Positions 13,355-52,064 of a DNA stretch of 64,000 bases are shown piece by piece (positions within the stretch are counted from its first letter, which is position 1; every line of letters starts with the position of its first letter). Both the position numbers and the translations under genes were made by a program. Under the pieces are notes generated by a model, which had not been told where the DNA came from, ran no database searches, and saw only the letters and a list, made by a program, of their open reading frames with translations. This DNA comes from Vicinamibacteria bacterium (GTDB lineage Bacteria; Acidobacteriota; Vicinamibacteria; Marinacidobacterales; Marinacidobacteraceae): positions 576,001-640,000 of the forward strand of contig OZ219815.1 in assembly GCA_964291235.2 (NCBI GenBank), given 5' to 3'.

Positions 13355-13428
13355 CCGGCGACGATCCGCGCAATCCGCGGGCCGCCGTGAAGGAATCACG
13401 GTGGGATTCCAGTCCCGCCGTCGTTCAA

Positions 13429-14237: not shown

Positions 14238-14250
14238 GAAAGAAGCGTAG

Positions 14251-14424: not shown

Positions 14425-14808
14425 GGCGGAGGCCAGTGATATCGGGTGACAGCGTCGGGCATCCGGGAGTTCAGGAAACCGGCACGCTCCGCTTCCGGAC
14501 AATGAATCGCCGCGGGGATTTCTGAATCGCACCGGCGCGCCGGATACGGGATACGGATCGGTGGAGCGCTGAAATCGGCGCATTCCCCCGGGATGCGGCG
14601 CCGGATCGCCGGAATTCCCGCGCCGAACCGTCCGTCCCCGGCCACCGCCGCCCCGGGCGCATCCCTTGCGCCTCTTGAAGGACATGCACGGCAACGCGCC
14701 CAAGCCGCCCCGGGTCCCGGAAACCACTCGAATTCAAAGAACACCGGTTCTGCCCCGGGCGAAGCGCCGAAGCCGGCTTTCCAAACCCCCAAGGAGAACA
14801 ACTTCCCC

Positions 14809-17682
14809 ATGAAACACATCACTTTCCTGGCGCTCGCTCTCGCGGTGCTGGCCGGCGCCCCGGCGTTCGGCCAGACCGCGGGAGAAATCGAGGGCCGGGT
14901 CACCGACTCCCAGGGTCTCGCCATCCCCGGAGCGACCGTCACGCTCTCCGGCGAAGCCCTGATCACCGAACAGCGGACCGTCACCCTGAGTGACGGCTCC
15001 TACCGGTTCCGATCGCTCCGTCGCGGCGCGTACGACCTTCGGTTCGAGATCTCCGGATTCCAGATCCTCCTGCGCGAAGGCATCATCGTCGAGGGGAACC
15101 GGACCATCACCGTCCCGGTGACCCTCGAAGTCGCCACGGTCGCGGAAACGGTCACGGTCACCGGCGAAGCGCCGGTGGTGGACGTCCGCACCACGGCGCT
15201 ATCCACGGACTTCGGGACCGAGGCCCTCCATGAGGTGCCCTCCGCAACCGATGTCTGGGCGGTGCTCGCCCAGACGCCGGGCGTACGGATGCGCGGCTAC
15301 GACGTCGGCGGCAGCCACAAGAGCCAGCAGACGGGCTACGAGAGCTTCGGGATCCGCCGCCAGAACCGGATCCTCGCCGACGGCGTGGACACCACCGAAG
15401 GGGAAAGCGGCACCGGCTTCTACTTCGACTACTACTCCATCGAGGAGTTCACCACCTCGGCCGCCGGCGCCGACGTCGAGATGACCGGACCCGGCTCGAT
15501 GGTCGTCATGACGATGAAGAGCGGCGGCAACGAGTTCAGCGGGCTCCTGCACGCCGACTACGAGCATGAGTCGTTCGTCGGCAACAACGTGGACAGCGAG
15601 CTGGAGTCCCGCAACTTCACGGGCAATCCGAACATCCTGTTCTGGGAAGGCCACGCCGACCTCGGCGGGCCGATCGTGGAGGATCGCGCCTGGTTCTACG
15701 GCTTCTACAACCACTTCCGCATCGACAAGCAGGTCTCGGGGGTGGATCCGAACCTGGCCACCGACCTCGGCGACTTCGACCAGTTCGGCGGCAAGGTCAC
15801 CGCGCAGTTGACCAGCCGGGACCAACTCATCGCCTACACCAACTACCAGTTGAAGCAGAAGCCGAAGCGCGGCCTCTCGAACACGGTGGGTCCCGACTCG
15901 GTCCTGGCCCAGGACAGTTGGAGTTGGGCGCACAAGGGCGAATGGCAGCGCGTCTGGGACGACCGGACCTTCTCGACCTTCGCCGTCAAGCACTTCGGAT
16001 TCGGTTGGCCGATGGTGCCGCAGGTCGATCCGGAGTCGAACCCGCCGCGGTTCGACCAGGCAACCGGCATCCACACCGGCGCCGGCTGGAACACCAACAT
16101 CACCGGGACGCCGCCGTTCACGTTTGAGCGCTGGAAGCCCCAGGTGACGGCCACCGTGAGCCACTACGTGCCCGACTTCCTCGGCAGCCATGACTTCAAG
16201 TTCGGCTACGACTTCCAGATCGACGCCCGGAAATTCGGCGCCAACTCGAACTCCGGTCACGTCCGCTACATCGACGACAGCTCCCAGGGCCGGCCGCTGG
16301 ACGTGGACCAGATCGCGCTGTTCAGCATGCCCGCCGACGGCCAGATCAACGCCGATTCGCGGAACACCCATCACGACGTGTTCGCCCAGGACACCTGGCG
16401 GCCGATCGCCCGGCTGACGCTGAACCTCGGCGTCCGTTTCGGGCAGCAGCGGACTCATTTCCTCGACTCGGAGTCGAACCCGCTGTTCGCCGACTTCTTC
16501 CCGACCGGGGTGACCCAGGGACAGACCCTCGTCACCTGGAACACCTGGGCGCCCCGGGTGGGAGCAACCTATGAGCTCGCGGCGGGAACGGTGCTGAAGG
16601 GTCACTACGGCCGCTACTACGTGAACCTCGCGGACGCGCACCGCCGCGCCGACCCGGCGAACGTGGCCTGGACCCGGTTCGATTTCCTCGATCAGAACGG
16701 GAACGGCCTCTACGACGGGGCGAGCGAGCTCGGCACGATTCGCGCAACGAGCGGCGCTACCGGTACGGCCCTGCGGACGCTGGGCACGCCGGTGAACCCG
16801 AATCTGCAAAAGGAATACGTGGATGAGTTCAGCGTCTCCTTCGAGCACGAACTGGTCGCGGACACCGCTCTGCGCGCGTCCTTTGTCCGCAAGCAGCTCA
16901 ACGCCGACAGCGGGCAGTGGAACGTTCCGCAGCAGACCGCGCTCCTCGAGGGACGCGGCATCCCCTGCGGCACAGACTTCGAGTGTCCGACCAACGCGCT
17001 CACCGGGGCGCCGATCAACGTACAGCGGGTCCCGGACGACGTCGCCAACGTAGTGGACATCCAGACCGACACGTTCCCCGACATGGCGGCCAGCTACGAC
17101 ACCTTCCAGATCGCGGCAAACCGTCGTTTCGCGGGTGGATTCTTCGTGCAGGCGAGTTTCGACTACCAGTGGCGGGACGAGTACCGCGCCGCTTCGGGAG
17201 AATCACGAAGCCCCCTGACGGCCGACCCGATCGACGTGGGCTCCGACGGACACGGCACGATCTGGCAAAACCACAGCCTCGACGTCCCCTTCCGCCAGGA
17301 AACCACGAACTGGAACGGGCGCCTGCTCGCCCGCTACACACTGCCCTACGGGGTCGCGGTGTCCGGAAACGTGCGCTACCAGAGCGGCTGGCCGTGGGCT
17401 CCGATCCAGCGGGTCTCGATTCCCGGTTCGGGCACCCAGCCGATCTTCCTCTCGAACCTCGATGAAAACCGCTCCGACGCGGTGACGCTCGCCGATTTCC
17501 GGATCGAGAAGAACTTCGAGGTCGGCAACGGCTCGCTCCTCACCGCGATGGTGGACGTGTACAACGCCCTGAACTCCAACGCGGTTAGCAACTTCAATCT
17601 GCGGACGGGCGCGAATTACAACAACGTGATCGCCGCCCTCGATCCCCGCGCCGCCAAGGTCGGCCTCCGCCTGACCTTCTGA
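14809..17682 (+). CDS. TonB-dependent receptor with carboxypeptidase-regulatory-like N-terminal domain, paralog 1
   Basis: AAGGAG RBS, signal peptide, GRVTDSQG..IPGATV, ETVTVTGEAPVVD, LGGPI, C-terminal RLTF. Confidence 0.9.
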   Translation: MKHITFLALALAVLAGAPAFGQTAGEIEGRVTDSQGLAIPGATVTLSGEALITEQRTVTLSDGSYRFRSLRRGAYDLRFEISGFQILLREGIIVEGNRTITVPVTLEVATVAETVTVTGEAPVVDVRTTALSTDFGTEALHEVPSATDVWAVLAQTPGVRMRGYDVGGSHKSQQTGYESFGIRRQNRILADGVDTTEGESGTGFYFDYYSIEEFTTSAAGADVEMTGPGSMVVMTMKSGGNEFSGLLHADYEHESFVGNNVDSELESRNFTGNPNILFWEGHADLGGPIVEDRAWFYGFYNHFRIDKQVSGVDPNLATDLGDFDQFGGKVTAQLTSRDQLIAYTNYQLKQKPKRGLSNTVGPDSVLAQDSWSWAHKGEWQRVWDDRTFSTFAVKHFGFGWPMVPQVDPESNPPRFDQATGIHTGAGWNTNITGTPPFTFERWKPQVTATVSHYVPDFLGSHDFKFGYDFQIDARKFGANSNSGHVRYIDDSSQGRPLDVDQIALFSMPADGQINADSRNTHHDVFAQDTWRPIARLTLNLGVRFGQQRTHFLDSESNPLFADFFPTGVTQGQTLVTWNTWAPRVGATYELAAGTVLKGHYGRYYVNLADAHRRADPANVAWTRFDFLDQNGNGLYDGASELGTIRATSGATGTALRTLGTPVNPNLQKEYVDEFSVSFEHELVADTALRASFVRKQLNADSGQWNVPQQTALLEGRGIPCGTDFECPTNALTGAPINVQRVPDDVANVVDIQTDTFPDMAASYDTFQIAANRRFAGGFFVQASFDYQWRDEYRAASGESRSPLTADPIDVGSDGHGTIWQNHSLDVPFRQETTNWNGRLLARYTLPYGVAVSGNVRYQSGWPWAPIQRVSIPGSGTQPIFLSNLDENRSDAVTLADFRIEKNFEVGNGSLLTAMVDVYNALNSNAVSNFNLRTGANYNNVIAALDPRAAKVGLRLTF

Positions 17683-21454: not shown

Positions 21455-23161
21455 TTGAGCCGCCGCGCCCGGAAACACTTCGCGGCGGCGGTGTGTATCA
21501 CCGTTTCGGGTGCGGCCTCCGCTGCGGCCCAGGGGTTCACCGAAGTCACCGAAGCAGCGGGTCTTCGTTTCGTCCACGACGCGGGCGACGAGGGCAACTT
21601 CTCGCTCCCGGAGATCACCGGCGCCGGGGCGGGATTCTTCGATGCCGACGGAGATGGAGATCTCGACATCTATCTGCTCCAGGGCGGCCGGCCGGCCGAC
21701 CCCGCGGGCCCGCGTCCGGGAGCGCCCGGCAACGTCCTCTATCTCCAGGGACCGCCGGGAACTTTTGTGGATGCCAGCGACGCCTCGGGGACGGCCGACA
21801 CCGGCTACGGGATGGGACTCGCGGCGGGAGACTTCGACGGGGATGGGCGTACCGATCTCTTCGTCACGAACTACGGGCCGGATGTCCTCTACCGGAGTCT
21901 CGGCGACGGACGCTTCGAAGACGTGACCGCGGCGGCGGGCGTCGCCGGGGAGGGATGGTCCTCGTCCGCCACCTTCTGCGACTACGACGCCGACGGACGC
22001 CTCGACCTCTACGTCACCCGGTACGTCAGAAACGACCCGGCGAAGCTCTGCACCCAGCAGGACGGGAGCCGCGACTATTGCAGTCCCCAGGTGTTCCCCG
22101 GAGCCCATGACTACCTCTACCGGAACCTGGGCAGGGGCCGTTTCGAGGACGTTTCCCTCGCCTCGGGACTGCGGACGGTGCACGCGCCCGGCCTCGGGGT
22201 GGTCTGCCATGACTTCGACGGCGACCGGCGTCTCGACTTCTATGTGGCGAACGACGGAGAAGCGAACCAGCTCTGGCTGAACCAGGGGCCGGGCGGCTTC
22301 GCCGACGACGCCTTCCTCGCCGGCGTGGCCCTGAACGACGCCGGACGGCCCGAGGCGGGGATGGGGATCGCGCTGGGAGACGTGGACGCCGATCTCGATC
22401 TCGACCTCTTCATCACCCACGTCGCGGACGAGACGAACACCCTCTACCGGAGCGACGGTTCGGACCTTGGGTTGTCCTTCGCCGACCGCACCGGCCCTTC
22501 CGGCCTCGGCCCAGCGAGCATGGCGATGACGGGTTTCGGGACCGGGTTCGCAGACCTGGATCTCGACGGCGCGCTGGACCTCGTGGTCGCGAACGGCCGG
22601 GTCCAGCGGAAACCCGCGCTTCCGGGAGCTCTCGGTGACGCTTTCTGGAGGGTCTTCGGCGAGCCGAACCAGGTGTTCCGAAACGGCGGCACGCAGGGGA
22701 ACGACGCCCTCTTTGCCGGTTTCGAGAGTGCCGGGGACTTCGACGGGGTCATCGAAGTCAGCCGCGGGCTGGCGCTCGGGGACTATGACGAGGACGGCGA
22801 TCTCGACCTGCTGCTCGCGAACGCGGAAGGACCCGCCCGCCTCTATCGGAACGACTTCGAGCGGAGCGGATCGCCGCTCCGCGTGACCACCCTCGACGCC
22901 GCGGGAAGGCCTGCGTTTCCGGCCGTGGTGACCGCGGTCTTGGCGGACGGCGCCCGCTCGGTACGCCGCGCCGACCCGGGCGGAAGCTATCTGGCGACCG
23001 GCGATCCGCGCGCGTTCTTTGCAGTCCCGCCGAACGGCGAGGTGACCGAATTTGAGGTGATCTGGCCGGATGGGAATCGCGAAGCCTTTCCCGGAACCGG
23101 TAGCGCAACCGTCAGCCTGAGGCAGGGCGGCGGCGAGCCCCGCCAGGAAACTCGCCGGTAA
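21455..23161 (+). CDS. CRTAC1-family FG-GAP repeat / ASPIC-UnbV protein
   Basis: Repeated DxDGDGxxD motifs; SRGLALGD; C-terminal GGSYLA..V.WPDG. Confidence 0.9.
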   Translation: MSRRARKHFAAAVCITVSGAASAAAQGFTEVTEAAGLRFVHDAGDEGNFSLPEITGAGAGFFDADGDGDLDIYLLQGGRPADPAGPRPGAPGNVLYLQGPPGTFVDASDASGTADTGYGMGLAAGDFDGDGRTDLFVTNYGPDVLYRSLGDGRFEDVTAAAGVAGEGWSSSATFCDYDADGRLDLYVTRYVRNDPAKLCTQQDGSRDYCSPQVFPGAHDYLYRNLGRGRFEDVSLASGLRTVHAPGLGVVCHDFDGDRRLDFYVANDGEANQLWLNQGPGGFADDAFLAGVALNDAGRPEAGMGIALGDVDADLDLDLFITHVADETNTLYRSDGSDLGLSFADRTGPSGLGPASMAMTGFGTGFADLDLDGALDLVVANGRVQRKPALPGALGDAFWRVFGEPNQVFRNGGTQGNDALFAGFESAGDFDGVIEVSRGLALGDYDEDGDLDLLLANAEGPARLYRNDFERSGSPLRVTTLDAAGRPAFPAVVTAVLADGARSVRRADPGGSYLATGDPRAFFAVPPNGEVTEFEVIWPDGNREAFPGTGSATVSLRQGGGEPRQETRR

Positions 23162-24724: not shown

Positions 24725-24964
24725 AGCGCGGGACTCCGGCAGGCGCCGGCCCACACCAGGGGGTTGGACATTCGGCGGCGTCCGGCCGTATCATCGCTCC
24801 ACGATTTTGAATTCACCGCGCCGTTTCTGGATCAACACAGCCACCCGGAATTCCAACCTATTGAAAAACCTGATAGATGCAGGACACCCGGCCAGAGTCT
24901 TCGGTGGCATGTCAGTTGCGAGTTGCGGTCATCAATCTTTGTCTTACCCGTTGAAGGAGGGACC

Positions 24965-27859
24965 ATGAGAAAGATTCTTCTCGCTCTTCTGTTCGTGACG
25001 ATTGCCGTCCCGGCACTCGCGCAGCAGCAGTACGGGCGCCTTGAAGGCGCGGCCCGTGACTCCCAGGGACTCTCTCTCCCCGGGGTGTCCGTCAACCTCT
25101 CCGGTGAGGCCATCATCGGAAGCCGGAACGCCACCACCGACGTGGACGGCTCCTACCGGTTCCAGGCGCTGCCTCCGGGCGACTACACCATCGTGTTCGA
25201 ACTCAGCGGTTTCCAGACCGTCGTGTTCGAGGACATTCGGGTGGTGACCGGCGCGACCTTCTCGGTGAATGCCGACATGCAGATCGCGACGGTGGCCGAG
25301 ACGGTCACGGTGACCGGCGAGTCGCCGGTGGTGGACGTGAAGTCCACCGGCGTGGCGGCGACCTTCGACAAGACGCAATTGGACGAGGTTCCCACCGCAA
25401 CCGACATGTGGGCGGTGCTGCACCAGAGCCCGGGAGTCCGGGTCCAGGGTTACGACGTGGGCGGCTCGCACAAGAGCCAGCAGTCCATGTACGAGACCTT
25501 CGGCGTGCGGAGCCAGAACCGGGTCCTCTACGAGGGTGTGAACACCACGGAAGGCACCGGCTCGGCTGGCGGTTACTACGACTACTACGCGATGGAGGAA
25601 ATGCAGGTTTCGGCGCAGGGCGCGGACGTGGAGATGTCCACCCCGGGCGCGCAGATCCAGACGACCGTCAAGAGCGGCGGTAACGACTTCTCCGGCCTCC
25701 AGAGCGGGGCCTGGAATCCCCCGGATCTGATCGCCGACAACTTCACCTCCGAATTGGGCGCGCGGGACGGCTCCCCGTCACCGGTGCTCTCGTTCTACGA
25801 GTTCCACCTCGACCTCGGCGGCCCCATCGTCCGGGACAAGGCCTGGTTCTACGCGGCCTACAACAACTTCTACATCGATACGGCGATCTCCGGCGTGGAC
25901 CAGAACCTGGCCACGGACATCGGCGACTTCGACATCTTCACCGCGAAGGTGAACTACCAGATCACCGAGCGCGACCAGTTCATCGGGTTCTCCACCTGGT
26001 CCTGGAAGCGGAAGCCCAACCGCGGCCTCTCCGCGACCCGTCCCGCCGAATCCATCCTCGCTCAGGACTACTGGATCTGGCTGCACAAGGCCGAGTGGCA
26101 GCGCGTCTGGAGCGACCGCTTCTTCTCCAACATCATGATCGGCCACATGGGAACGACCTGGCCCATGGTCCCCAAGGGGGATCCGATCAACGGGAACGAG
26201 CCGCGCTTCAACCTCGCCAGCAGCCATGTGTCGGGCGCCGGGTGGCAACCGTTTACCAGGAACCGCTGGAAGCCGCAGAGCACGGCCCAGTTCAACTACT
26301 ACGTCCCGATCGGCAACGGCAGCCACGACTTCAAGTTCGGCTGGGACTGGCAGATCGACAGCGAACTCCGCGGGTTCAACACGAACTCCGGCGCCTTCCG
26401 GTACCGCGACGATCCGGGCCAGGGCCGCCCGCACAACGTGCACCAGATCGACCTCGTGGGAGTTCCCAACCTGGTGGAAAACCCCAACATGCACGCGGAC
26501 TTCTTCGTGCAGGACGTGTGGACCGTCAACGACCGCCTGACCCTGATGGCCGGCATCCGGGTAGGCAGCCAGATCCTCACGTACCTCGAGGCGGACAACT
26601 CCCCTGGCAGCCCGTGTCAGGACGTCTTGCAGTGCCAGTTCGAACTCCCGGCCAATCAGAGCCAGATCCTCATGGACGTCTTTGGCACCGGCGGCATCAC
26701 CCCGGGTGACGATGTGTTCAGCCACTGGAACATCGCTCCCCGCGTCGGGCTGACCTACGACCTGACTGGTGAGGGTTCCACGGTCTTCAAGACCTACTTC
26801 GGGCGCTACTTCTCGAACATCGGGACCGGCCTCTTGTCCGCGAACCCGGGTGGCCAGCCTTCCGCCCGCTACGAATTCCTCGACCAGAACATGAACGGAA
26901 TCCTCGACGATTCTTCGGAACTCGGACAGCAGCTCTCGTTCACCGCGGGCGCCGGGTCCGGCTCCACAACGCCGATCGATCCGAACTGGACGCTCCCCTG
27001 GGCGGACGAGTTGAGCGCCTCGGTCGAGCACGAGCTCACCGCCGACCTCGGTGCGCGGGCGTCGTATGTGTACAAGCGGATGCGCAACACCTGGAGCAGC
27101 TACGACCAGGCCGACCTGGGCCGGAACACCCCGATCTCGATTCCGACCTGCGACGGGTGTCCCGCGGGTTACAACCGGTCGTTCAACCTGCTCCTCTACC
27201 CCGAGGAACTGGTCGGCACGACGGACAACCTCACCACGAACCACCCGGCCGGCGAGAGCGACATGGACTTCCACACCGTTTCGCTCGGACTGAACAAGCG
27301 GTTCCGGAGCAATTTCTTCTACAACGTGTACTTCGACTACCAGTGGCGCTCCGAGCCGCGGAGCCCGGGCGGGTCGTCCAGCGGCTGGGCAACCAGCTCG
27401 CCGCTGTCTTCCGACCCCACGTCGCAAGGCTGGTTCTTCAACTACGATCAGGACATTCCGACCGTTCAGGATACGACCACGTATCAGTTGAAGACTTCGG
27501 CGCGGTATGTCTTGCCGTTCGAGATCGGTTTGGCGGGAACGTATCGGTTCGTGAGTGGGTTCAACTTCGCGCCGACCCACCGCAACCTGGTGTATGACGG
27601 ACGGGTGACGGTCACCTCTTGGCTCGCCCCCATGAATGAGGACCGCTCCCCGAATGTGACGATCGTGGACTTCCGCCTCGACAAGGGCTTCGCCTTGAGC
27701 GATCGCATGAACGTGCAGGTCATTCTCGATGTCTTCAACGCGATGAATGCCAACACGGTCACGAACTTCCAGTTGCTCGATTCGGTGGTGCCCTATCAAC
27801 GAATCGTCGAGTACCTGAAAGGACGAACGATCGGCCTATCGGCGCGACTTACCTTCTGA
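24965..27859 (+). CDS. TonB-dependent receptor, paralog 2
   Basis: GAAGGAGG RBS; same architecture and GYDVGGSHKSQQ motif as paralog 1; ends RLTF. Confidence 0.9.
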   Translation: MRKILLALLFVTIAVPALAQQQYGRLEGAARDSQGLSLPGVSVNLSGEAIIGSRNATTDVDGSYRFQALPPGDYTIVFELSGFQTVVFEDIRVVTGATFSVNADMQIATVAETVTVTGESPVVDVKSTGVAATFDKTQLDEVPTATDMWAVLHQSPGVRVQGYDVGGSHKSQQSMYETFGVRSQNRVLYEGVNTTEGTGSAGGYYDYYAMEEMQVSAQGADVEMSTPGAQIQTTVKSGGNDFSGLQSGAWNPPDLIADNFTSELGARDGSPSPVLSFYEFHLDLGGPIVRDKAWFYAAYNNFYIDTAISGVDQNLATDIGDFDIFTAKVNYQITERDQFIGFSTWSWKRKPNRGLSATRPAESILAQDYWIWLHKAEWQRVWSDRFFSNIMIGHMGTTWPMVPKGDPINGNEPRFNLASSHVSGAGWQPFTRNRWKPQSTAQFNYYVPIGNGSHDFKFGWDWQIDSELRGFNTNSGAFRYRDDPGQGRPHNVHQIDLVGVPNLVENPNMHADFFVQDVWTVNDRLTLMAGIRVGSQILTYLEADNSPGSPCQDVLQCQFELPANQSQILMDVFGTGGITPGDDVFSHWNIAPRVGLTYDLTGEGSTVFKTYFGRYFSNIGTGLLSANPGGQPSARYEFLDQNMNGILDDSSELGQQLSFTAGAGSGSTTPIDPNWTLPWADELSASVEHELTADLGARASYVYKRMRNTWSSYDQADLGRNTPISIPTCDGCPAGYNRSFNLLLYPEELVGTTDNLTTNHPAGESDMDFHTVSLGLNKRFRSNFFYNVYFDYQWRSEPRSPGGSSSGWATSSPLSSDPTSQGWFFNYDQDIPTVQDTTTYQLKTSARYVLPFEIGLAGTYRFVSGFNFAPTHRNLVYDGRVTVTSWLAPMNEDRSPNVTIVDFRLDKGFALSDRMNVQVILDVFNAMNANTVTNFQLLDSVVPYQRIVEYLKGRTIGLSARLTF

Positions 27860-32264: not shown

Positions 32265-35174
32265 CTAGAAGGTCAGGCGGGCGCTGAGGCCGATCGTCCG
32301 GCCCTGGATCCACTCGATGGTGTTCCGGTACGCCCCGCCAGCGCGCATGATGAAGTTGGTCTCCGAGGCGTTGTTCAACGCGTTGAAGACATCCAGCATG
32401 AACTGGATCTCGGCGCTGTCGCCGAGGCTGACCGCCTTGTCCACCCGGAAGTCGACGATCGAGACGGTGTCCGAACGGCGGTTGTCCAGGTGGTCGAGGA
32501 AGATCGTCTGGGTTCCCACGTTTCCGATGCCCACGCTCAGGAGCGGCGCCCACGGGAAGCCGCTGACGTAGCGGAGCGTTCCGGCGACACCGACCTCATA
32601 AGGCATGACGTAGCGTGCCGCGCCCTTGAACTGCCAGTTGGTCACGCTCTGGATGAGCGGGATGAAGCCGTACTGGTAGGTCCAGCCGACCCCGACCGGG
32701 TCCGTCGTGAGCGGGCTCGTGGACTGGCCAGGGGTCCGGCCTTCGTTCCGCCACTGGTAGTCGAAGTAGGCGTTCCAGAAGAAGTTGTTCCGGAACCGCC
32801 GGTTGACACCCAGCGAGAGCGTCGTCCAGTTGAAATCCGCTTCGCCGTCCGGCACGTTCGTGACGAGGTTTTCGCTCGTCGGAGCGCCGTCCGGGAGGTC
32901 GTGCACCGTCAGCATCGTGCCGGCAAGTCCGTCAGGACAGGCGGCAGGGCAGGGAACCTGCTTGGTGTTCGTCAGTTTTCCGGCCCGGGCGATGTTCAGG
33001 GGTTCGAAAAATGCGCCCGTCTGGCGCTTGTGGACGAGCGAGGCGCGGAGCCCGAGGTCGTTGCCAACCTGGTGCTCGAAGGAGGCGCTGACCTCATCCA
33101 CATAGGGCTGTGTCGTGTTCGAGTCCACCGCGCTGCCGGTCGGAGGCACGCTGAAGTCCGAGCCGAGTCCGGCACCCGTGCTGCCGCCGAGACGATCGCC
33201 CAGTTCGTGCACGCCGTCGAAGAGGCCGTTCATGTTCTGATCGAGGAATCCGTAGGTGACGCTCTTGTTGCCACCGGGGTTCGTACTCTGCCATCCACTG
33301 TTCATGTTGTGGTAATAGCGTCCCCCGTAGCCCTTGACGACGGTGCGGCCCTCGCCGGTGACGTCATAGGTGAAGCCCACGCGCGGCGCGATGTTCCACC
33401 AACTGATCACGTTGCTGTTTCCCTGAATTTCGGCGCCAGGTCCGAACAACTGCGGTAGCGCCCCGGCGACATTCGCGTCGATGTCCGCGATCTCGCGGAT
33501 GCAACCGACGACTGCCTGACAGGTGCTGCCCGGCACGTTGTTGGAACCGAGGTACCCGATCCGCTGGCTTCCGAAGCGGACACCCGCGTTGAGCGTCAGC
33601 CGGTCCGTCAACGTCCAGACGTCCTGGGCGTAGAAGTCGATGTGGGTGTTCCGGTCCTGGTTGAAGTTCGGGAAGCTCTGGAAGTGGATCTCGTTCACGT
33701 TTTGCGGCCGCGGCGGATCCTGTGCGCTGTTGTCGAGGTAGCGCACTGCGCCCGAGTTGGCGTTCCAGCCGAACTGCCGCTCGTCGATCTGCATGTCCCA
33801 GCCGAACTTGAAGTCGTGGCTGCCGCTCTCGGTGGGCAGGTAATAGTTGAACTGACCGGTCGAGTGGGGCTTCCAGCGGTTGAAGGTGAACGGCCTCCAG
33901 CCGGCGCCCGACCAGAAGCTGGTGCCCGAGTCGAAGCGCGGCGGATTCGTCGCCGGATCCACGGCAGGCGTCATCGGCCAACCGAAGCCGAAGTGGTTCA
34001 CCTGGATGTTGCTGTAGAGCCGGTCGCTCCAGACTCGCTGCCACTCGGCCTTGTGCAGCCAGCTCCACGAGTCCTGCGCCAGGATGGATTCCGCCGGGCG
34101 GTTCGCCGAGAGACCCCGGAAGGGCTTCTGCTTCAGCGACCAGTGGTGGAAAGTGATGAACTGGTCCCGCTCGGTGATCTGCCAGTTCGCCTTCACCGTG
34201 AACATGTCGAAGTCGCCGAGGTCGGTACCCTCCGATTCGGGCTGCCCGGAAATGATCCGGTCGATGACGAACCGGTTGTAGGCAGCGTAGAACCACGCCT
34301 TGTCCCGCACGATCGGTCCGCCGAGATCGATGTGCGCCTCGTAGAACTCGATCACCGGCGCCGTGGTGCCGCCGCGGCCCATCAGGTCCGACGTGATGTT
34401 GTCGTTGATCCAGTCGGGCGGCTCGTAAGCGAAGTGCTCGGTTCCAGAGAAGTCGTTACCGCCGCTCTTCCACACCGCGTTCACCGTCGCGCCCGGGGTG
34501 TTCGATTCCACATCGGCACCCTGCGCGGACACCTGGAACTCACCGATCGCGTAGAAGTCGTAGTAGCCGCCCGCGCCGCCGGTCCCCTCGGTGGTGTTCA
34601 CACCGTCGTTGATGATCCGGTTCTGTCCCCGGACCCCGAAGGTCTCGTAGCCGGACTGCTGGCTCTTGTGGGACCCGCCCACGTCATAGCCGCGCATCCG
34701 CACGCCCGGGCTCTGCTGGAGGACCGCCCACATGTCGGTTGCCGACGGGACGTCCTCGAGCTGGGTGGTGTCGAAGGTTGCCGACACACCCGTCGTCTTC
34801 ACGTCCACCACCGGGGATTCGCCCGTCACGGTGACGGTCTCGGCGACGGTCGCGATGTCCATCGTGGCGTTGATCTCGAAGGTCGAGCCGCCAACCACGG
34901 TGATGTCCTCGAAGACGACGGTCTGGAAACCGCCGAGTTCGAAGGTCATGTTGTAGCTGCCGCCGACGAGTTGGGCGAATCGGTAGGACCCGTCCACGTC
35001 GGTGGTCGCGCTCCGGGCGGCCACGAGTTCATCGGACTCCAGGGTCACCGTCACTCCGGGGAGCACGAGGCCCTGGGCGTCGCTCGCGGCGCCCTCAAGG
35101 CGCCCGTAAATCTGCTGGGACAAGGCCGCACTGGGCCATGCCACCAGCAGCGTAAAGAGAATGAGTTTTCTCAT
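32265..35174 (-). CDS. TonB-dependent receptor, paralog 3
   Basis: AAGGAGG RBS before MRKLILF; GYDVGGSHKSQQ motif; ends GRTIGLSARLTF, as in paralog 2. Confidence 0.9.
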   Translation of the reverse strand: MRKLILFTLLVAWPSAALSQQIYGRLEGAASDAQGLVLPGVTVTLESDELVAARSATTDVDGSYRFAQLVGGSYNMTFELGGFQTVVFEDITVVGGSTFEINATMDIATVAETVTVTGESPVVDVKTTGVSATFDTTQLEDVPSATDMWAVLQQSPGVRMRGYDVGGSHKSQQSGYETFGVRGQNRIINDGVNTTEGTGGAGGYYDFYAIGEFQVSAQGADVESNTPGATVNAVWKSGGNDFSGTEHFAYEPPDWINDNITSDLMGRGGTTAPVIEFYEAHIDLGGPIVRDKAWFYAAYNRFVIDRIISGQPESEGTDLGDFDMFTVKANWQITERDQFITFHHWSLKQKPFRGLSANRPAESILAQDSWSWLHKAEWQRVWSDRLYSNIQVNHFGFGWPMTPAVDPATNPPRFDSGTSFWSGAGWRPFTFNRWKPHSTGQFNYYLPTESGSHDFKFGWDMQIDERQFGWNANSGAVRYLDNSAQDPPRPQNVNEIHFQSFPNFNQDRNTHIDFYAQDVWTLTDRLTLNAGVRFGSQRIGYLGSNNVPGSTCQAVVGCIREIADIDANVAGALPQLFGPGAEIQGNSNVISWWNIAPRVGFTYDVTGEGRTVVKGYGGRYYHNMNSGWQSTNPGGNKSVTYGFLDQNMNGLFDGVHELGDRLGGSTGAGLGSDFSVPPTGSAVDSNTTQPYVDEVSASFEHQVGNDLGLRASLVHKRQTGAFFEPLNIARAGKLTNTKQVPCPAACPDGLAGTMLTVHDLPDGAPTSENLVTNVPDGEADFNWTTLSLGVNRRFRNNFFWNAYFDYQWRNEGRTPGQSTSPLTTDPVGVGWTYQYGFIPLIQSVTNWQFKGAARYVMPYEVGVAGTLRYVSGFPWAPLLSVGIGNVGTQTIFLDHLDNRRSDTVSIVDFRVDKAVSLGDSAEIQFMLDVFNALNNASETNFIMRAGGAYRNTIEWIQGRTIGLSARLTF

Positions 35175-35599
35175 GCTGCTTGGTCCTCCTTGGGGGGTCG
35201 GAAGCATGGAAAGGAGAAAGATGTCAGTCAGGAGTAGCAACGGCCGGACCAAGGGGGCCGACCGAGCCGTTTCCGTTCCTAAGTCGTTCTGAATTCGTTT
35301 TGTTACGTCCGCACCTCGCGGTGCCGAAATCCAAGTAATTCACCCCAATATTCGTTTTATTGGAGCCGAACAGCCAATTGTCTTGAATCTCGTAGGCCCC
35401 TGTCAACCCGGGAAGGTCGGTTCTGGGCTCATCAGCGGCGCCCCAAGACGCGGACCGGGCCTCCGGATGCCGGGGGCTGTGCGGTCCAATACGGCTGATC
35501 GGATCGTGCGGCGACCCTGGCGCTGCTCCAGGGCGACCACCGAAGAGCGCGGATTCTTTCCGTTGGGATGCCGATAAGAAACGGAGTGCGAAGAGTCTC

Positions 35600-39705: not shown

Positions 39706-39734
39706 TTGACGGCCGCCGAGCCGGGGCATATCTT
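39706..39734 (+). promoter_or_regulatory. sigma70-like promoter upstream of M20 paralog A
   Basis: TTGACG-N17-TATCTT; context ctcgccctttgac..catatctt is conserved before paralog B. Confidence 0.65.
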
Positions 39735-39738
39735 CTAG

Positions 39739-39917
39739 CAGCCTGTGGAGGAAGTGACGCGAGCACCGAGAACGGGGAGGCGCCCGGCTGACAAGGCGCC
39801 CGAGGGAGGAATACCAGGTGTATTCCGACCGAAGGGCAACGATGAGGGTCGCGTAGCGACCCGGTTCAGCCGGGATGCATCGCCGTTCGAATGCCGCGTG
39901 ACTTTCTGCACAGGCTG
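39739..39917 (+). mobile_element. Structured MITE-like element, copy 3 (179 bp)
   Basis: CTAG|CAGCCTGTGG...GCACAGGCTG|CTCA; full core present. Confidence 0.92.
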
Positions 39918-39986
39918 CTCAAAGTGACCGCTCGCTAGGCGCGATGGTGCGGTCACGGCTCCGTTCGACTCAGGGAGGAGACTCTG

Positions 39987-41672
39987 ATGACCCGAAAAAC
40001 AACCCGATTCGGCCTGTTTTTGATCTTCGCCGCCGGGCTCGGCTTACTGGCCTGTGGAGCGCCCGAGACGGAGGACCGGACCGCCCCCGGCGCCGAGACG
40101 CTCGGCGTCCGGGCCGACGGCGACACCCAGATCTCCCCCGACCTGTCGCGGATTCCCGAGGAACTGCAGCAAGTGTTCCGCCACATCGACGACAACGTGG
40201 ATCGCCAGCACGTGATGAACCTGAGGCGCTGGATCCAGCAGCCGAGCATCTCGAACTCGGGCGAGGGAATCCCCGAGTCGGCCCAGATGGTCAAGGGGTT
40301 CTTCGATCAGCTCGGTTGCCAGCATTCCCAGGTGTACGAGATCCCCATGACCGAGTGGGGGCAGCCGGGCAATCCGGTGGTGTACGCGAACTGCAACTAC
40401 GGCGCCGAGCGCACCCTGCTCATCTACTGGATGTACGACACGATGCCGATCACCCAGCCCGAGGCCTGGGTGCTCCCGCCGTTCGACGGGGAGTTCACCG
40501 AGTTCGGCCCCTTCAAGAAGGTGATGATCGGCCGCGGCGCGACCAACTCCAAGGGTCCGCAGATGGTCCAGTGGAACGCCTTCCACTCGATCTACGAGGA
40601 AACCGGCACCATGCCGGTGAACCTGATCTTCATCGCCGAGGGCGACGAGGAGCGGATGTCCATCGGCCTCCGCCAGTTCGTCCGCGAAAACCCGGATCTG
40701 TTCCGCGAGGCGGAGGCGATGTACCGCTTCGGGCGGCAGTCACGCTCCGGCGCCGCGGGCATCGGGGGCGGTTCGGAAGGCTGCGTTTACATCGAACTCA
40801 CCACCAGCGGAGCGAGCTGGGGACGGGGCCCGGTGGCCTCCAACATCCACGGATCCAGAAAACGCTCCGTGGACGCCCCGGCGCTCCGCCACGTGAAGAT
40901 GCTCTCGTCACTGGTAACCGATGACGGGAACGGGGTGTTGGTTCCCGGGTTCTACGACGGCGCCGACCCGCTGAACGACGCGGAGGAAGCGATGTTCCAA
41001 AACGCCGCCGAGAACATCGACCTGGCGGTCGCCGCCGAGAACATCGGGGTGGCCCGCTTCATCAGCGACGATCCGCTGACCTACCTGAAGAGCGCGCGCT
41101 ACGGCATTTCCTTCAACATGGACGGCGTCTGGGCCGGCAACATGTATCCGGGCGGCGCCGGCGCCATTCTGCCGAACCGCATTACCTCCAAGCACAACAT
41201 GCGCTACGTCCCCAGCATGGACGGGCTGGAGATGGTCCAGAAGATCCGGGACTACCTGGATGAGCAGGGCTACGAGGACGTCGAGATGACGATCATCGGG
41301 GACGTCCCGTGGTCGAAGTCCAGCTACGACAACCGGGCGGCGCACTCCCTGCTGCACACCTATGACATTTTCGGGATCCCCTACCGGGACCCGATCGAAG
41401 GGGAGAGCATCCTCGGCGGTTACTGGCCCGCCTATCTCTTCAGCGGCCGGGACGGGGATTTCGCCGACGGCACCGACCTCTCGATGCCGATCGTGGGCGG
41501 CGCCGGCGGCCACGGAGGCGGCTCCCACGCGGCCAACGAGTTCTGGGTGATCGAGGGCGCCGGCAACGTCTATGGGATGGCCGGCGGCGAGAAGACGGTG
41601 GCGACCTTCCTCTACGCCTACGCGGGGCTGCTCCCCGATGCCCCGGCCGAGACCGGGATGGACGAGGAATAG
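39987..41672 (+). CDS. M20/M25/M40-family metallohydrolase lipoprotein, paralog A
   Basis: GGAGGAG RBS; LLAC lipobox; QQPSIS, YDTMP...W..PPF, GRGATNSKG, EGDEE, HAANE. Confidence 0.88.
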   Translation: MTRKTTRFGLFLIFAAGLGLLACGAPETEDRTAPGAETLGVRADGDTQISPDLSRIPEELQQVFRHIDDNVDRQHVMNLRRWIQQPSISNSGEGIPESAQMVKGFFDQLGCQHSQVYEIPMTEWGQPGNPVVYANCNYGAERTLLIYWMYDTMPITQPEAWVLPPFDGEFTEFGPFKKVMIGRGATNSKGPQMVQWNAFHSIYEETGTMPVNLIFIAEGDEERMSIGLRQFVRENPDLFREAEAMYRFGRQSRSGAAGIGGGSEGCVYIELTTSGASWGRGPVASNIHGSRKRSVDAPALRHVKMLSSLVTDDGNGVLVPGFYDGADPLNDAEEAMFQNAAENIDLAVAAENIGVARFISDDPLTYLKSARYGISFNMDGVWAGNMYPGGAGAILPNRITSKHNMRYVPSMDGLEMVQKIRDYLDEQGYEDVEMTIIGDVPWSKSSYDNRAAHSLLHTYDIFGIPYRDPIEGESILGGYWPAYLFSGRDGDFADGTDLSMPIVGGAGGHGGGSHAANEFWVIEGAGNVYGMAGGEKTVATFLYAYAGLLPDAPAETGMDEE

Positions 41673-41765: not shown

Positions 41766-41832
41766 CCAGAGTTGGCCGTCCCCCGGAGTGAGGTGCGGCC
41801 GCTGCTCGGTCCCACCCACGAAGGAGATTTTG

Positions 41833-43515
41833 ATGACGCGAAACGCAACCCGATTCGGCCTGTTCCTGCTGCTCGTTTGCGGGCTCGGCTGGCTCGCCTG
41901 CGGAGCCCCCGAAATGGAGGACCGGATGGCGCCCGCCACCGAGACACTCGGCGTGCGCGCCGCGGGCGACACGGAAATTGCACCCGACATGTCGCAGATC
42001 CCCGAGGAACTCCAGCAGGTGTTCGGGCACATCGACGACAACATCGATGAGCACGTGATGAATCTCCGTCGCTGGATCCAGCAGCCGAGCATCTCGAACT
42101 CGGGCGAGGGAATCCCCGAATCAGCCCAGATGGTCAAGGGGTTCTTCGACCAGCTCGGCTGTCAGCAATCGCAGGTGTACGAGATTCCCATGACCGAATG
42201 GGGGCAGCCCGGCAACCCGGTCGTGTATGCGAACTGCGACTACGGCAAGGAGCACACGATCCTCATCTACTGGATGTACGACACGATGCCGATCACCCAG
42301 CCCGAGGCCTGGGTGCTCCCGCCGTTCGACGGGGAGTTCACCGAGTTCGGCCCCTTCAAGAAGGTGATGATCGGCCGCGGCGCGACCAACTCCAAGGGTC
42401 CGCAGATGGTCCAGTGGAACGCCTTCCACTCCATCTACGAGGAGACCGGATCCATGCCGGTCAACCTGATCTTCATCGCCGAGGGTGACGAGGAGCGGAT
42501 GTCCATCGGCCTCCGGCAGTTCGTCCGCGAAAATCCGGAACTCTTCGCCGAGGCGGACGCGATGTATCGCTTCGGTTCCCAGTCGCGCTCCGGGGCCGCC
42601 GGCATCGGCGGCGGATCGGAAGGCTGCGTTTACATCGAACTCACCACCAGCGGAGCGAGCTGGGGACGGGGCCCGGTGGCCTCCAACATTCATGGGGCAC
42701 ACAAGCGCTCCACCGACGCCCCGGCGCTCCGCCACGTAAAAATGCTCTCTTCCCTGGTTACCGAGGACGGGAACGGGGTGTTGATTCCCGGGTTCTACGA
42801 CGGCGCCGACCCGCTGAACGACGCCGAGGAGGCGATGTTCCAAAACGCCGCCGAGAACATCGACATGGCCGTTGCCGCCGAGAACATCGGAGTGGCCCGC
42901 TTCATCAGCGACGATCCGCTGACCTACCTGAAGAGCGCGCGCTACGGCATTTCCTTCAACATGGACGGCGTCTGGGCCGGCAACATGTATCCCGGCGGCG
43001 CCGGCGCGATCCTGCCGAACCGGATTACCTCCAAGCACAACATGCGCTACGTCCCCAGCATGGACGGGCTGGACATGGTCCAGAAGATCCGGGACTACCT
43101 GGATGAGCAAGGCTACGAGGACGTCGAAATGACGATCATCGGAGACGTCCCGTGGTCGAAGTCCAGCTACGACAACCGGGCGGCGCATTCGCTGCTCCGC
43201 ACCTACGACGTCTTCGGCATCCGCTACCGCGATCCCCTCGAGGGCGAATCCATACTGGGCGGTTACTGGCCGGCATACCTGTTCAGCGGCAGGGACGGGG
43301 ACTTCGCCGACGGCACCGACCTCTCGATGCCGATCGTCGGCGGGGCGGCCGGACACGGCGGCGGCGCCCACGCGGCCAACGAGTTCTGGGTCATTGAGGG
43401 CGCCGGCGAGGTCTATGGGATGGCCGGGGCCGAGAAGTCGATCGCTACTTTCCTCTACGCCTATGCCGGACTGCTACCCGATGCCCCGGCCGAGACAGGG
43501 ATGGACGAGGACTAG
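41833..43515 (+). CDS. M20/M25/M40-family metallohydrolase lipoprotein, paralog B
   Basis: GAAGGAG RBS; highly similar to paralog A with long identical stretches. Confidence 0.88.
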   Translation: MTRNATRFGLFLLLVCGLGWLACGAPEMEDRMAPATETLGVRAAGDTEIAPDMSQIPEELQQVFGHIDDNIDEHVMNLRRWIQQPSISNSGEGIPESAQMVKGFFDQLGCQQSQVYEIPMTEWGQPGNPVVYANCDYGKEHTILIYWMYDTMPITQPEAWVLPPFDGEFTEFGPFKKVMIGRGATNSKGPQMVQWNAFHSIYEETGSMPVNLIFIAEGDEERMSIGLRQFVRENPELFAEADAMYRFGSQSRSGAAGIGGGSEGCVYIELTTSGASWGRGPVASNIHGAHKRSTDAPALRHVKMLSSLVTEDGNGVLIPGFYDGADPLNDAEEAMFQNAAENIDMAVAAENIGVARFISDDPLTYLKSARYGISFNMDGVWAGNMYPGGAGAILPNRITSKHNMRYVPSMDGLDMVQKIRDYLDEQGYEDVEMTIIGDVPWSKSSYDNRAAHSLLRTYDVFGIRYRDPLEGESILGGYWPAYLFSGRDGDFADGTDLSMPIVGGAAGHGGGAHAANEFWVIEGAGEVYGMAGAEKSIATFLYAYAGLLPDAPAETGMDED

Positions 43516-43694
43516 CAGCCCGTGGCAAAACCCACGCGGCGTTCGACGAGCGATGCATCCCGTCTGAACCGTGCCGCTTCGCGGCGCTCGGCGTTGCGCT
43601 TCGGTCGAAATACACCCGGTATTCCTCCCTCGCGCGCCTTCTCAGCCGGGCGCCTCGCCCGTCTCGGCGCTCACGCGGGTTTCACCACGGGCTG
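43516..43694 (-). mobile_element. Structured MITE-like element, copy 4 (179 bp)
   Basis: CTAG|CAGCCCGTGG...CCACGGGCTG|CTAG; the left CTAG contains the paralog B stop codon. Confidence 0.93.
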
Positions 43695-43808
43695 CTAGCA
43701 ACCGGAAATTGAGCAGCGCTCTGGTTCGTCCCGGGGACCCGGCTTCCGGAGGGGAGCCGGGTCCGACGTTTGGGGCGCGCCCCTGACCCCTGAAAGGCCA
43801 CGAGACCC

Positions 43809-44546
43809 ATGCCGGAGGAATCGCCTCCCACCGCAATTGAAGTTCGGGATCTCGTCAAGACGTACGTCCTGAGCGAGACCCATCGGGTGGAGGCCCTCCG
43901 TGGACTCACCCTGTCGGTGGACAAGGGGGAGTTCCTGTCGGTCCTCGGCCCGTCCGGATCCGGCAAGAGCACCCTGATGCACATCATCGGCTGTCTCGAC
44001 CAGCCGACCTCCGGGGAATACCACCTCATGGGACGCGACATCTCCCGCCTCGGGAACGACGAGCGCGCCCGCATCCGGAACGAGGAGATCGGGTTCGTCT
44101 TCCAGAGCTTCCACCTGCTCGCCCGGGCCAGCGCCCTCGAGAACGTGGAACTTCCCATGCTCTACGGGGCCAAGCGGCCGGGACGCGAAGAAAGACGCCG
44201 GAAGGCGTCCGAAGCGTTGGCGGCCGTGGGCCTCTCCGACCGGGCGACCCACGCCCCGAGCCAGCTCTCCGGAGGCCAGCAGCAGCGGGTTGCCATCGCC
44301 CGGGCCCTCGCCAACCGGCCGCGCCTCCTGCTGGCGGACGAACCGACCGGCAATCTGGACACCCGGACCGGACGGGAAATCCTCGACACCTTCGCCCGGC
44401 TCAACTCGGAACGAGGACTGACCGTGATCATGATCACCCACGACCGGCAGGTGGCGCAGTATGCCTCCCGAAGCGTTGAGCTGCGGGACGGACGAATCCT
44501 CACCGACGAAGGAATATCGAGCAATGGAGCAGACCCCGGTGCCTGA
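43809..44546 (+). CDS. ABC transporter ATP-binding protein (LolD/MacB type)
   Basis: GPSGSGKST, LSGGQQQRVAIARAL, ADEPTGNLD, ITHD. Confidence 0.96.
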   Translation: MPEESPPTAIEVRDLVKTYVLSETHRVEALRGLTLSVDKGEFLSVLGPSGSGKSTLMHIIGCLDQPTSGEYHLMGRDISRLGNDERARIRNEEIGFVFQSFHLLARASALENVELPMLYGAKRPGREERRRKASEALAAVGLSDRATHAPSQLSGGQQQRVAIARALANRPRLLLADEPTGNLDTRTGREILDTFARLNSERGLTVIMITHDRQVAQYASRSVELRDGRILTDEGISSNGADPGA

Positions 44547-46074: not shown

Positions 46075-46125
46075 GAATCCGCCGGCCGGCGAGCGGCGGC
46101 AGGTTCAGTCGGGCAGCGGGATTAA

Positions 46126-46304
46126 CAGCCTGTGGACAAAGTCACGCGGCATTCGAACAGCGATGCATCCCGGCTGAACCGGGCCGCTGCGCGACCCTCA
46201 TCGTTGCGTTTCGGTCGGAATACACTCGGTATTCCTTCCTCACGCGCCTTGTCAGCCGGGCGCCTCACTGTTCTCGGTGCTCACGTCACTTTATCCACAG
46301 GCTG
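46126..46304 (-). mobile_element. Structured MITE-like element, copy 5 (179 bp)
   Basis: TTAA|CAGCCTGTGGA...TCCACAGGCTG|TTAA. Confidence 0.93.
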
Positions 46305-46495
46305 TTAACGGAGCGGTCAGGCCGGACGGATCCGCCTGAGCGAAGACCCGCTCCAGCCGCCACTGAATCCAGATTCCATCGCCGCCGCCCGAGAGGAGAA
46401 AGAACAGCAAGAAGCCGGCGGCGATCGCCGCATCAGGAAACCGGCGGACCCGCTCTTTGATCACCCGGTCTGTGCGGGGCTACCGGTATCGCTTC

Positions 46496-50367: not shown

Positions 50368-52064
50368 CCCCCAGCCGGCGGCGGGTCGCGGTGGCGATTC
50401 CCGCCGGGCTCGCAGTGCTGGTCTTCCTGGTGGGGCCCGCGGCGTCCGGCGGTCCCGGCCAACAGATCCAACTCGAAGATGTCACCGCGGCGAGCGGAAT
50501 CGACTACCGAAACGTGAGCGGAGAACCCGAGAAACGGTTCATCGTCTCTTCGCTCGGCGCGGGGGTGGGCCTCCTCGACTACGACCAGGACGGCGACCTC
50601 GACATCTACTTCGTCAACGGCGCGCCGCTCGAGGATCGGACGCCCGGTCCGGGGCTGCCGAACCAGCTCTTCCGCAACGAGGGGGATCTCCGCTTCACGG
50701 ATCAGACCGAGGCCGCGGGTGTTGGAGACACTGGTTGGGGCTACGGAGTCGCGGTCGCGGATTTCGACAACGACGGCTTCCCCGACCTCTACGTAACGAA
50801 TCTGGGCGAGAACGTTCTCTTCCGAAACCGGGGGGACGGCTCGTTCGAACGGCTTGCCGCGGCCGGCGGCGCGTCGCATCCCGGCTTCTCCACGTCCGCC
50901 GCCTTCCTGGACGCCGAAGGCGATGGCGACCTCGACCTGGTGGTCCTGGGCTACACCGCGGACTCCATCGACTCGCTCCCGCTGCCGGGCGCCGGGGCAA
51001 GCTGCGTCTGGTTCGGGCTGCCCGTCTTCTGCGGCCCGTCGGGGCTGATCCCCGCCCCGGACGGTTTCTTCCGGAACCGGGGAGACGGAACCTTCGAGGA
51101 CACCACGGAAGCCGCCGGGCTGGCAAGCGTGGATCCGGCATACGGACTGGGGGTGGTGACCGGGGATCTCGACGGCGACGGGGACACCGACTTCTATGTC
51201 GCAAATGACTCCGTTCCGAACCACCTGTTCATCAACGACGGCCAGGGGAGATTCAGCGAACAGGGGCTTCTCGCGGGAACCGCCTACAACGTGGATGGCC
51301 TCGCACAGGCCGGCATGGGAGTGGATGCCGGCGACTTCGACGAGGACGGCCAGCTCGATCTCTTCGTCACGAACTTCTCGCACGACACGAACACCGCCTA
51401 CCGAAACGCGGGAGGCGGCTTCTTCGAGGACAGCACCACCCGGAACGAACTCCGGATGCCGGGCTGGTTCTACCTGGGCTGGGGAACCCGGTTCATCGAT
51501 CTCGACGCCGACGGCTGGCTCGATCTGTTCGTTGCCAACGGACACGTCTATCCGGAGGCGGAGGCCGCGGGCAGCGGAACCCGCTACCCGATGCAGAACC
51601 AGCTCTTCAGGAATGGGGGGAGCGGCGCTTTCGTCGAGGAAGCGTGGGACGGCCCGGAGCGCTCGAGCCGCGGGCTGGCGGTCGGGGATCTGGACGAAGA
51701 CACGCTTCCGGACCTGGTGGTCGTGAACGTGGACGACGAAGCCGCGGTCTTCAAGAACCGGAGTGGCGGACGCGGGATCACTCTGCGACTGGTGGGCGCC
51801 GGAGCCCCCAGGGACGGGAACGGGGCGAGGGTTTCGTTCTCAACCGCGGACGGGGTACGAAGAGCCAGGGAAGTGCATCGGAGCGGGAGTTTCCTGTCGT
51901 CGAACGACCCACGGGTGCACTTGGGCGCCGGAAACGGAGAGGAGGTCTTCGACGTGGTGGTTCGCTGGCCGGGCGGCGAGGCGGAACGCCTCCGCGACCT
52001 CCCCGCGGCGGGTCGGTTGATCGTCGTCCGCGAAGGCGCCGGAGTGGTCGAAGGCAGCCGTTAA
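50364..52064 (+). CDS. CRTAC1-family FG-GAP / ASPIC-UnbV protein
   Basis: DYDQDGDLD-type repeats; AGMGVDAGD; SRGLAVGD; GSFLSSND.R.H.G...VRWPGG. Confidence 0.9.
   Translation: MTPSRRRVAVAIPAGLAVLVFLVGPAASGGPGQQIQLEDVTAASGIDYRNVSGEPEKRFIVSSLGAGVGLLDYDQDGDLDIYFVNGAPLEDRTPGPGLPNQLFRNEGDLRFTDQTEAAGVGDTGWGYGVAVADFDNDGFPDLYVTNLGENVLFRNRGDGSFERLAAAGGASHPGFSTSAAFLDAEGDGDLDLVVLGYTADSIDSLPLPGAGASCVWFGLPVFCGPSGLIPAPDGFFRNRGDGTFEDTTEAAGLASVDPAYGLGVVTGDLDGDGDTDFYVANDSVPNHLFINDGQGRFSEQGLLAGTAYNVDGLAQAGMGVDAGDFDEDGQLDLFVTNFSHDTNTAYRNAGGGFFEDSTTRNELRMPGWFYLGWGTRFIDLDADGWLDLFVANGHVYPEAEAAGSGTRYPMQNQLFRNGGSGAFVEEAWDGPERSSRGLAVGDLDEDTLPDLVVVNVDDEAAVFKNRSGGRGITLRLVGAGAPRDGNGARVSFSTADGVRRAREVHRSGSFLSSNDPRVHLGAGNGEEVFDVVVRWPGGEAERLRDLPAAGRLIVVREGAGVVEGSR

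Follow-up and report, generated by a model that had tools for sequence, protein, structure and literature searches.

The 181-bp element called copy 4 is a mobile, non-autonomous foldback transposon (MITE) that duplicates a TA target, and selection, not ancestry or transcription-linked mutation bias, keeps its pairing good on one strand only. The region is best explained as one recent insertion of such an element, and the selected molecule would be a single strand, of the polarity that we call M, spanning the element. This strand would more probably be RNA than single-stranded DNA, a reading to which we assign a probability of about 0.5.

The window, that is, the whole 64,000-nt stretch of DNA that was analyzed (G000:C1:576001-640000), belongs to an assembly of 3.45 Mb in two contigs with 68% G+C. 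We designate the + strand of copy 4 as P and the reverse complement of P as M. Genes were called with a home-made codon-likelihood caller, and single gene calls may be wrong. The features to which the text refers are given in window coordinates:

43515–43695, M strand = minus: copy 4, the foldback element proper (R-CAGCC...GGCTG-Y), 181 bp, with ends taken from the flank table and the empty sites
43513–43514: left TA of the target duplication, which with the first G of the element makes the TAG stop codon (43513–43515) of the upstream gene
43696–43697: right TA of the target duplication
43543–43666, minus: conserved core of copy 4, from the alignment, the match of the core covariance model R1 (G000:C1:619543-619666), and the comparison of subfamilies
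41830–43515, plus: upstream gene, peptidase family M20, its stop codon rebuilt by the insertion of copy 4
43809–44546, plus: downstream gene, ABC transporter ATP-binding protein
13428–13626 (approximate ends), M = minus: copy 1, with one nested 18-nt unit at 13454–13471
14245–14378 (approximate ends), M = plus: copy 2, truncated, without the 3′ part of M
39738–39918 (approximate ends), M = plus: copy 3, between divergent genes
46125–46305 (approximate ends), M = minus: copy 5, between convergent genes

The P strand of copy 4 is the strand read by both neighboring genes. The original prediction, made for positions 43516–43694 (copy 4 minus its terminal R/Y pair), had counted five copies in the window, and all five are real. 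A repeat search of the window returns three direct copies (1, 4, and 5, at 13440–13628, 43509–43697, and 46119–46307) and two inverted ones (2 and 3, at 14248–14375 and 39735–39919); the aligned extents, in P orientation, are 13422–13630 (+), 14245–14378 (−), 39734–39924 (−), 43509–43699 (+), and 46119–46309 (+). Mean column identity among the five is 67%, and copy 1 has 18 nt extra. Two tandem paralogous genes (39987–41672 and 41830–43515, in the segment 39944–43515; the second is the peptidase M20 gene) reach 92% identity over 300 nt, with copy 3 situated upstream of one and copy 4 immediately behind the other. Elsewhere in the window are three paralogous genes of ~1000 aa (14593–17682, 24764–27859, and 32265–35252) that share 70–80% identical stretches, two direct and one inverted; short repeats whose periodicity is D-x-D-x-D-G-like form separate sets in 21600–22830 and 50550–51740.

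Folded as RNA, copy 4 has an energy of −104.5 kcal/mol (z −6.5) on the + strand and −125.4 kcal/mol (z −9.5) on the − strand. The A/C oppositions that the original prediction had read within the stems of the + strand are present in copy 4 as 1 × 1 internal loops of the + fold, and in the − fold they become G·U pairs, as it had proposed; the single counter-example that it had recorded, a T-G pair in the small hairpin of copy 4, is there as well. Folding gives minus as the better strand for copies 1, 4, and 5 and plus for copy 3, in agreement with the polarity assigned to them beforehand, and the plus polarity of copy 2 follows by homology only. Of this genome's 54 full-length copies, 52 fold better on M, the difference averaging −19.4 kcal/mol (sd 7.3); M is favored in 50 of 54 with DNA energy parameters (mean −8.7 kcal/mol), and the RNAalifold consensus of the 54 copies is −74.5 for M versus −13.4 for P. 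M is likewise better in all 165 further copies (mean −20.0), which were taken at 117 loci in other genomes, the majority of them members of the genus, and in all 29 copies that distant genomes contributed (24/24 and 5/5 in the two sets described below).

The asymmetry was tallied at the level of single pairs. Over 61 pairs and 87 copies, the M-derived structure holds 4729 Watson-Crick, 483 G·U, 28 A·C, and 65 other cells and 2 gaps; because the structure was derived from M, the tally of 483 versus 28 overstates the asymmetry, but its direction is still clear. Standard pairs occupy 98.2% of the cells of this structure on M and 89.7% on P. A strand-neutral union of both folds gives 357 G·U cells on M versus 202 on P. 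At the consensus level, the genus subfamily has six G·U sites on M versus three on P, and the strand-neutral consensus tally in three subfamilies is 6 versus 3, 4 versus 4, and 5 versus 1; the tally of sub4, whose consensus was derived from a long variant and is noisy, was left out. Columns that are unpaired in both folds are purines on M in 30 of 34 cases (15 G, 15 A, 1 C, and 3 T), which bears out the expectation of purine-rich loops on the complementary strand.

Pairing runs the whole length of the element and is kept by compensatory changes. On M, 97.6% of cells pair, compared with 90.4% in shuffles, none of which (0/500) attains the real figure; both partners have changed in 33 of 64 pairs (19.3 ± 1.8 in shuffles), and slid controls pair in 31–40% of cells. 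The terminal inverted repeats form helix 1, which pairs in 96.5% of cells, and the terminal pair 5/205 (R...Y) is GC in 42 and AU in 39 of 87 copies. Wobble pairs are kept at fixed positions, with G·U at 50/144 in 85 of 87 copies and U·G at 27/183 in 75 of 87. The pair closing hairpin B (120/124) is C-G in 87 of 87 copies, and the hairpin itself is optional, being found in the genus subfamily and not in three distant subfamilies. The core stem carries a conserved U·G, a G·A opposition, a G·U, and a bulged A; the core also has a purine-rich junction. Homologous U·G and G·U sites of this stem recur in three distant subfamilies, and the stem of hairpin A of the core covaries between subfamilies. 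Four blocks, GAGGCGCCCGG, CAAGG.GCG, GCAACG, and CGGGAUG.AUCG, are invariant on M across subfamilies. A hammerhead reading of the words GAAAC and GAUGAG, noticed by eye on M, was rejected, since their order does not fit and hairpin B is absent from other subfamilies. A short peptide behind a GGAGG-like word on M would have its stop in a variable loop.

A genome search with a profile of the five copies (nhmmer) returned 81 hits, of which the 54 full-length ones are spread over 3.45 Mb, 28 on + and 26 on −; short length (181 bp) and many dispersed copies are two of the traits of a MITE. Every full copy has the form TA, R-CAGCCTGTGG ... CCACAGGCTG-Y, TA. A TA duplication with a complementary inner R/Y fits 13 of the 15 informative non-identical junction pairs counted from the flank table. 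A 4-bp target duplication, which would need identical junction 4-mers, fits 0 of these 15 and was rejected. The site of copy 4 is uninterrupted and has a single TA in 12 of 12 genus relatives inspected (15 searched), reading gacTAG in four of them and gacTGA in the rest; the insertion is therefore young, and the empty sites are consistent with TA duplication, the orthologues being too diverged to rule out the 4-bp model at that one site. Among the 54 copies of this genome, 27 overlap the stop codon of a gene (distances −4 to −6, judged by eye on the home-made gene calls).

IS630-family elements are numerous in relatives and have ends that begin TA-GT..., and three distant subfamilies have ends that resemble those of particular IS630-family elements, found in their own genomes or in related ones. 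In one subfamily, 13 of 14 bases agree with the right end of an IS of 1563 bp in genome G040; the agreement in the others is 17 of 22 with an IS of G032 and 16–17 of 22 with an IS of G001/G004. For the subfamily of the present genome, comparison of R-CAGCCTGTGG with 10 IS630-like end types from relatives gave no match and hence no partner IS, no DDE_3 (IS630-type) gene was matched in the assembly, which is 90% complete, and a genome-wide pairing of end motifs showed no peak at IS length. Nor does the core resemble the interior of any of eight IS630-like elements with which it was compared. At three loci of G004 and G001 (L129, L137, and L140), IS630-family ISs sit precisely at the terminal TA of a copy; their position at the element-terminal TA indicates that the ends of the element make or keep an IS target. 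In G009, head-to-tail arrays of three elements overlapping by a few bases (C1:1812851-1813404 and 1754217-1754767) give the impression that successive copies inserted into the end TA of their predecessors.

The family as a whole comprises a conserved structured core of ~100–124 nt and exchangeable terminal inverted repeats that mimic IS630-family ends, and the core is older and better conserved than the ends. Relatives in other families of the order can be aligned only in the interior (query positions 83–166), and their arms are different sequences. The core covariance model R1 (124 positions, 31 pairs) has matches in 84 of the 151 genomes sampled from the class (46 of 76 genera), and many matching genomes hold multiple copies, often at least 23 scored matches. 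In a phylum sample of 151 genomes, R1 at E ≤ 1e-6 matches 10 genomes labelled as other classes, one of which is not relied on. Rfam gives no match at gathering score in the 64-kb window and only chance-level matches (E 4.9–7.3) in 43400–43800.

Nested within the element, at several different sites, is a unit of 18 nt (CCCCACCGGGAGAACTGG on M), which occurs in both orientations and sometimes twice in tandem. Element lengths step from 191 to 209, 227, 245, and 263 nt with these units, of which 100 of 219 copies carry 1–4. Read from the alignment, a 20-nt string (GC plus the 18-nt unit) takes the place of two target nucleotides (GT, AA, TT, or GC), the insertion positions being approximate because they depend on the MAFFT alignment; we know of no mechanism for this nesting. 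Of the genome's 160 matches to the unit (≤2 mismatches), 100 are not in the element, and 10 fall within predicted genes. Roughly a dozen mini-elements (~80 nt) have the outer arms and the 18-nt unit as their sole interior (e.g., C1:241015, C2:726494, and C2:2036245). Elsewhere in the genome, the unit is also found within copies of another repeat, ~121 nt long and with two G+C-rich hairpins. Arrays of this second repeat flank, on both sides, the single Y1_Tnp gene (IS200-like, RAYT-like; 243 aa; G000:C1:16193-16924, within L128, G000:C1:15098-18334). A link of the element to this RAYT-like gene was considered and rejected, since the gene is flanked by the other repeat and no hit of the element lies near it.

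The two strands also differ in their orientation relative to genes. Between co-directional neighbors, P is the strand read in 22 copies of this genome and M in 11; at the loci of other genomes, the corresponding numbers are 67 and 29. Sites with similar flanks were collapsed into 157 clusters (one a catch-all of 53), after which tandem contexts have P in the sense direction in 69 cases versus 29 for M (p = 6.6e-5), and stop-codon sites 47 versus 22 (p = 0.0035). M is antisense to co-directional genes about twice as often as sense and thus is not simply a structured part of host messages. Because the two ends are nearly identical, the insertion step should ignore orientation, and the bias points to a post-insertion effect that differs between the two transcripts. 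The under-representation of M in the sense direction suggests that an M transcript would be costly inside host messages; such a transcript would be a very stable hairpin of ~70 pairs and a plausible target of RNase III or roadblock. No sigma-70-like promoter or intrinsic terminator was found in 43350–43850, so an RNA with both arms would have to start outside the element.

The asymmetry could in principle have no function, having been merely inherited after founder chance or strand-biased mutation. The copies do share ancestry, the consensus difference in the genus subfamily is just 6 versus 3 sites, and single-column counts of A>G and T>C are symmetric (196 versus 189); the unpaired columns, holding just 1 C and 3 T, offer little as a control for mutation bias. 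Parsimony on a tree of 219 copies nevertheless counts 383 changes from Watson-Crick to G·U on M versus 154 to A·C, both inflated by the poor resolution of a tree built from 191-nt copies, so that the imbalance which the original prediction expected over many copies is found in these changes as it is in the folds of both strands (M better in 52/54 and 165/165). Within the 56 pairs common to the folds of both strands, 268 changes lead to G·U versus 101 to A·C, and the excess is present both in private changes on terminal branches (218 versus 90) and in shared changes on internal branches (50 versus 11). It is also present in every gene context: 84 versus 34 where P is sense, 40 versus 11 where M is sense, 55 versus 25 between divergent genes, and 31 versus 19 between convergent genes. 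A transcription-coupled mutation bias would flip its sign between P-sense and M-sense copies; since the excess does not, such a bias is rejected. Deamination of the non-template strand would, in addition, predict the opposite sign for the commoner orientation. GC skew shows no clear pattern with element strand, in the small numbers of this two-contig genome. The polarity recurs, moreover, where the arms are not homologous: in three arm types from other subfamilies, M is more stable in 24 of 24 copies, by 6.9 to 28 kcal/mol, with 1–4 A·C 1 × 1 loops per copy in the P fold and 0–1 in the M fold, and in five copies from further families and another class M is better in 5 of 5. Given the G·U-biased new changes, their independence of context, the recurrence in unrelated arms, and the purine-rich unpaired columns, founder inheritance does not explain the asymmetry. 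With covariation also exceeding that of all 500 shuffles, a functionless origin is very improbable, and the recurrence among arm types and the branch and context counts have already largely refuted it.

Selection might instead act on a P-sense RNA and prevent its hairpin from closing fully, leaving loops rich in pyrimidines and a stretch like CCUCC, so that the better fold of M is a by-product. P is the sense strand in 69 of the 98 site clusters in tandem contexts and in 47 of the 69 at stop codons, pyrimidines occupy 30 of the 34 unpaired columns on P, and the A·C oppositions weaken P by ~20 kcal/mol while it still folds at about −100. Any mismatch could weaken the hairpin, yet transversion-type mismatches are not preferred over A·C, and compensatory changes restore pairs; the conserved U·G, G·A, G·U, and bulged A give a regular stem only on M, and the G·U excess is equal in copies where P is not sense, all of which makes this explanation unlikely. 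A tentative reading with more in its favor is that the selected single strand is DNA, an M hairpin at the replication fork or in excision or integration aiding copying, excision, insertion, or copy survival, with G·T tolerated and A·C not. Strand-specific DNA hairpins have precedents in the bottom strands of integron attC sites, the ends of IS200/IS605, and REP sequences with RAYT. Pairing and covariation reach the terminal R...Y pair beside the TA, DNA parameters also prefer M (50/54), and the invariant C-G pair of hairpin B (87/87) closes three loop columns that by eye are mostly G-N-A, a loop type that, closed by C-G, is very stable in DNA as in RNA. The G·U excess is as strong where the neighbors read P, so selection on resident copies in host messages is no explanation for it; its blindness to gene context and its presence in internal-branch changes fit selection on propagating lineages and leave single-stranded DNA a serious rival. 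Several observations weigh against DNA, however. The ends resemble those of the IS630 family, which cuts and pastes double-stranded DNA, and the target is TA; the sole Y1 (HUH) transposase gene of the genome is flanked by a different repeat; and an orientation bias is seen relative to transcription and none relative to GC skew (small own-genome sample). Palindromic elements derived from IS200/IS605 have subterminal hairpins and insert 3′ of a fixed short word with no target duplication; insertion of this kind, after a TA and by a TA-ending element, could also produce a single TA at empty sites and a TA at both junctions, but a palindrome spanning the whole element and ends like those of IS630 speak against it. 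We favor RNA of M polarity because of its family-wide conserved G·U pairs and tandem U·G/G·U, which are more typical of RNA, its purine-rich loops, and the bias relative to transcription; the weight given to the pairs and loops comes from general knowledge of RNA helices. With such an RNA, the benefit would fall to active element lineages rather than to each resident copy. The original prediction had argued for a single-stranded form with defined polarity and for RNA over a DNA cruciform. The polarity holds in private and shared changes, in every gene context, and in unrelated arms, and the cruciform is disfavored because a symmetric double-stranded cruciform would not favor G·T on one strand; RNA, for its part, is only the more probable choice over single-stranded DNA, the DNA model preferring M too. 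The mobility of the repeat, its TA duplication, and its class-wide core go beyond what the original prediction had recognized.

A more far-reaching and still doubtful possibility is that the core is an undescribed structured RNA carried on IS630-type ends. The element would then be a mobile non-coding RNA gene whose ends were changed several times for different transposases and which spread through Vicinamibacteria and, patchily, other Acidobacteriota. It might act in trans, to the benefit of the element or of its host, for example by pairing with the many P-sense copies in messages, and the nested 18-nt unit would be a second, smaller mobile module.

The element is reminiscent of several known repeats. 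Like RUP (the IS630-Spn1 MITE), it is small and non-coding, with IS630-like terminal repeats and insertion at TA (PMC2229807). According to that review, RUP has no reported structure or function motif (PMC2229807), and the two sequences are unrelated; the element differs from RUP in its class-wide core, exchangeable ends, strong covariation, and strand-specific fold. The Correia or NEMIS elements of Neisseria are also TA-flanked foldback repeats near genes, and their transcript hairpins affect neighboring messages (PMC2229807). They differ in having an IHF site and promoter-like ends, and they have no sequence similarity to the element. Correia elements duplicate TA and are processed by RNase III; we know of no report of G·U selection on one strand in them. 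ERIC (IRU) sequences of enterobacteria are imperfect palindromes that are co-transcribed with their neighbors and influence message stability in an orientation-dependent manner (PMC2229807). They are ~127 bp long, occur in a different phylum, and are not known to combine a structured core shared across a class with exchanged ends. REP or REPIN sequences with RAYT (Y1) are, like the element, abundant hairpin repeats, thought to be handled as single strands and hence polar, and the element differs from them in its TA duplication and IS630-like ends. The use of G·U pairs to tell the reading strand of structured RNA genes is the basis of RNAstrand (PMC1892782). RNAstrand is a method for RNA genes, whereas here the principle is applied to a mobile DNA repeat for which single-stranded DNA is a live alternative.

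A literature search covering titles and abstract openings in journals available without subscription found no description of the element, and nothing under the name "Marinacidobacterium" either. The element differs from known TA-duplicating MITEs in its class-wide covarying core with exchangeable ends, its ongoing strand-specific constraint, and its nested 18-nt module. Bacterial MITEs are usually viewed as decayed ISs in which only the terminal repeats matter. The pattern here is the reverse, in that the ends vary, the interior is conserved over a class, and the strand preference persists in new mutations. The element thus makes it possible to test whether an element of the cut-and-paste type has a single-stranded intermediate or product, and it may represent a new family of RNAs in a phylum where very few have been characterized. 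For annotation, it accounts for a large class of intergenic repeats in Vicinamibacteria MAGs. Its rebuilding of stop codons and its orientation bias indicate that it likely shapes the 3′ ends of many messages.
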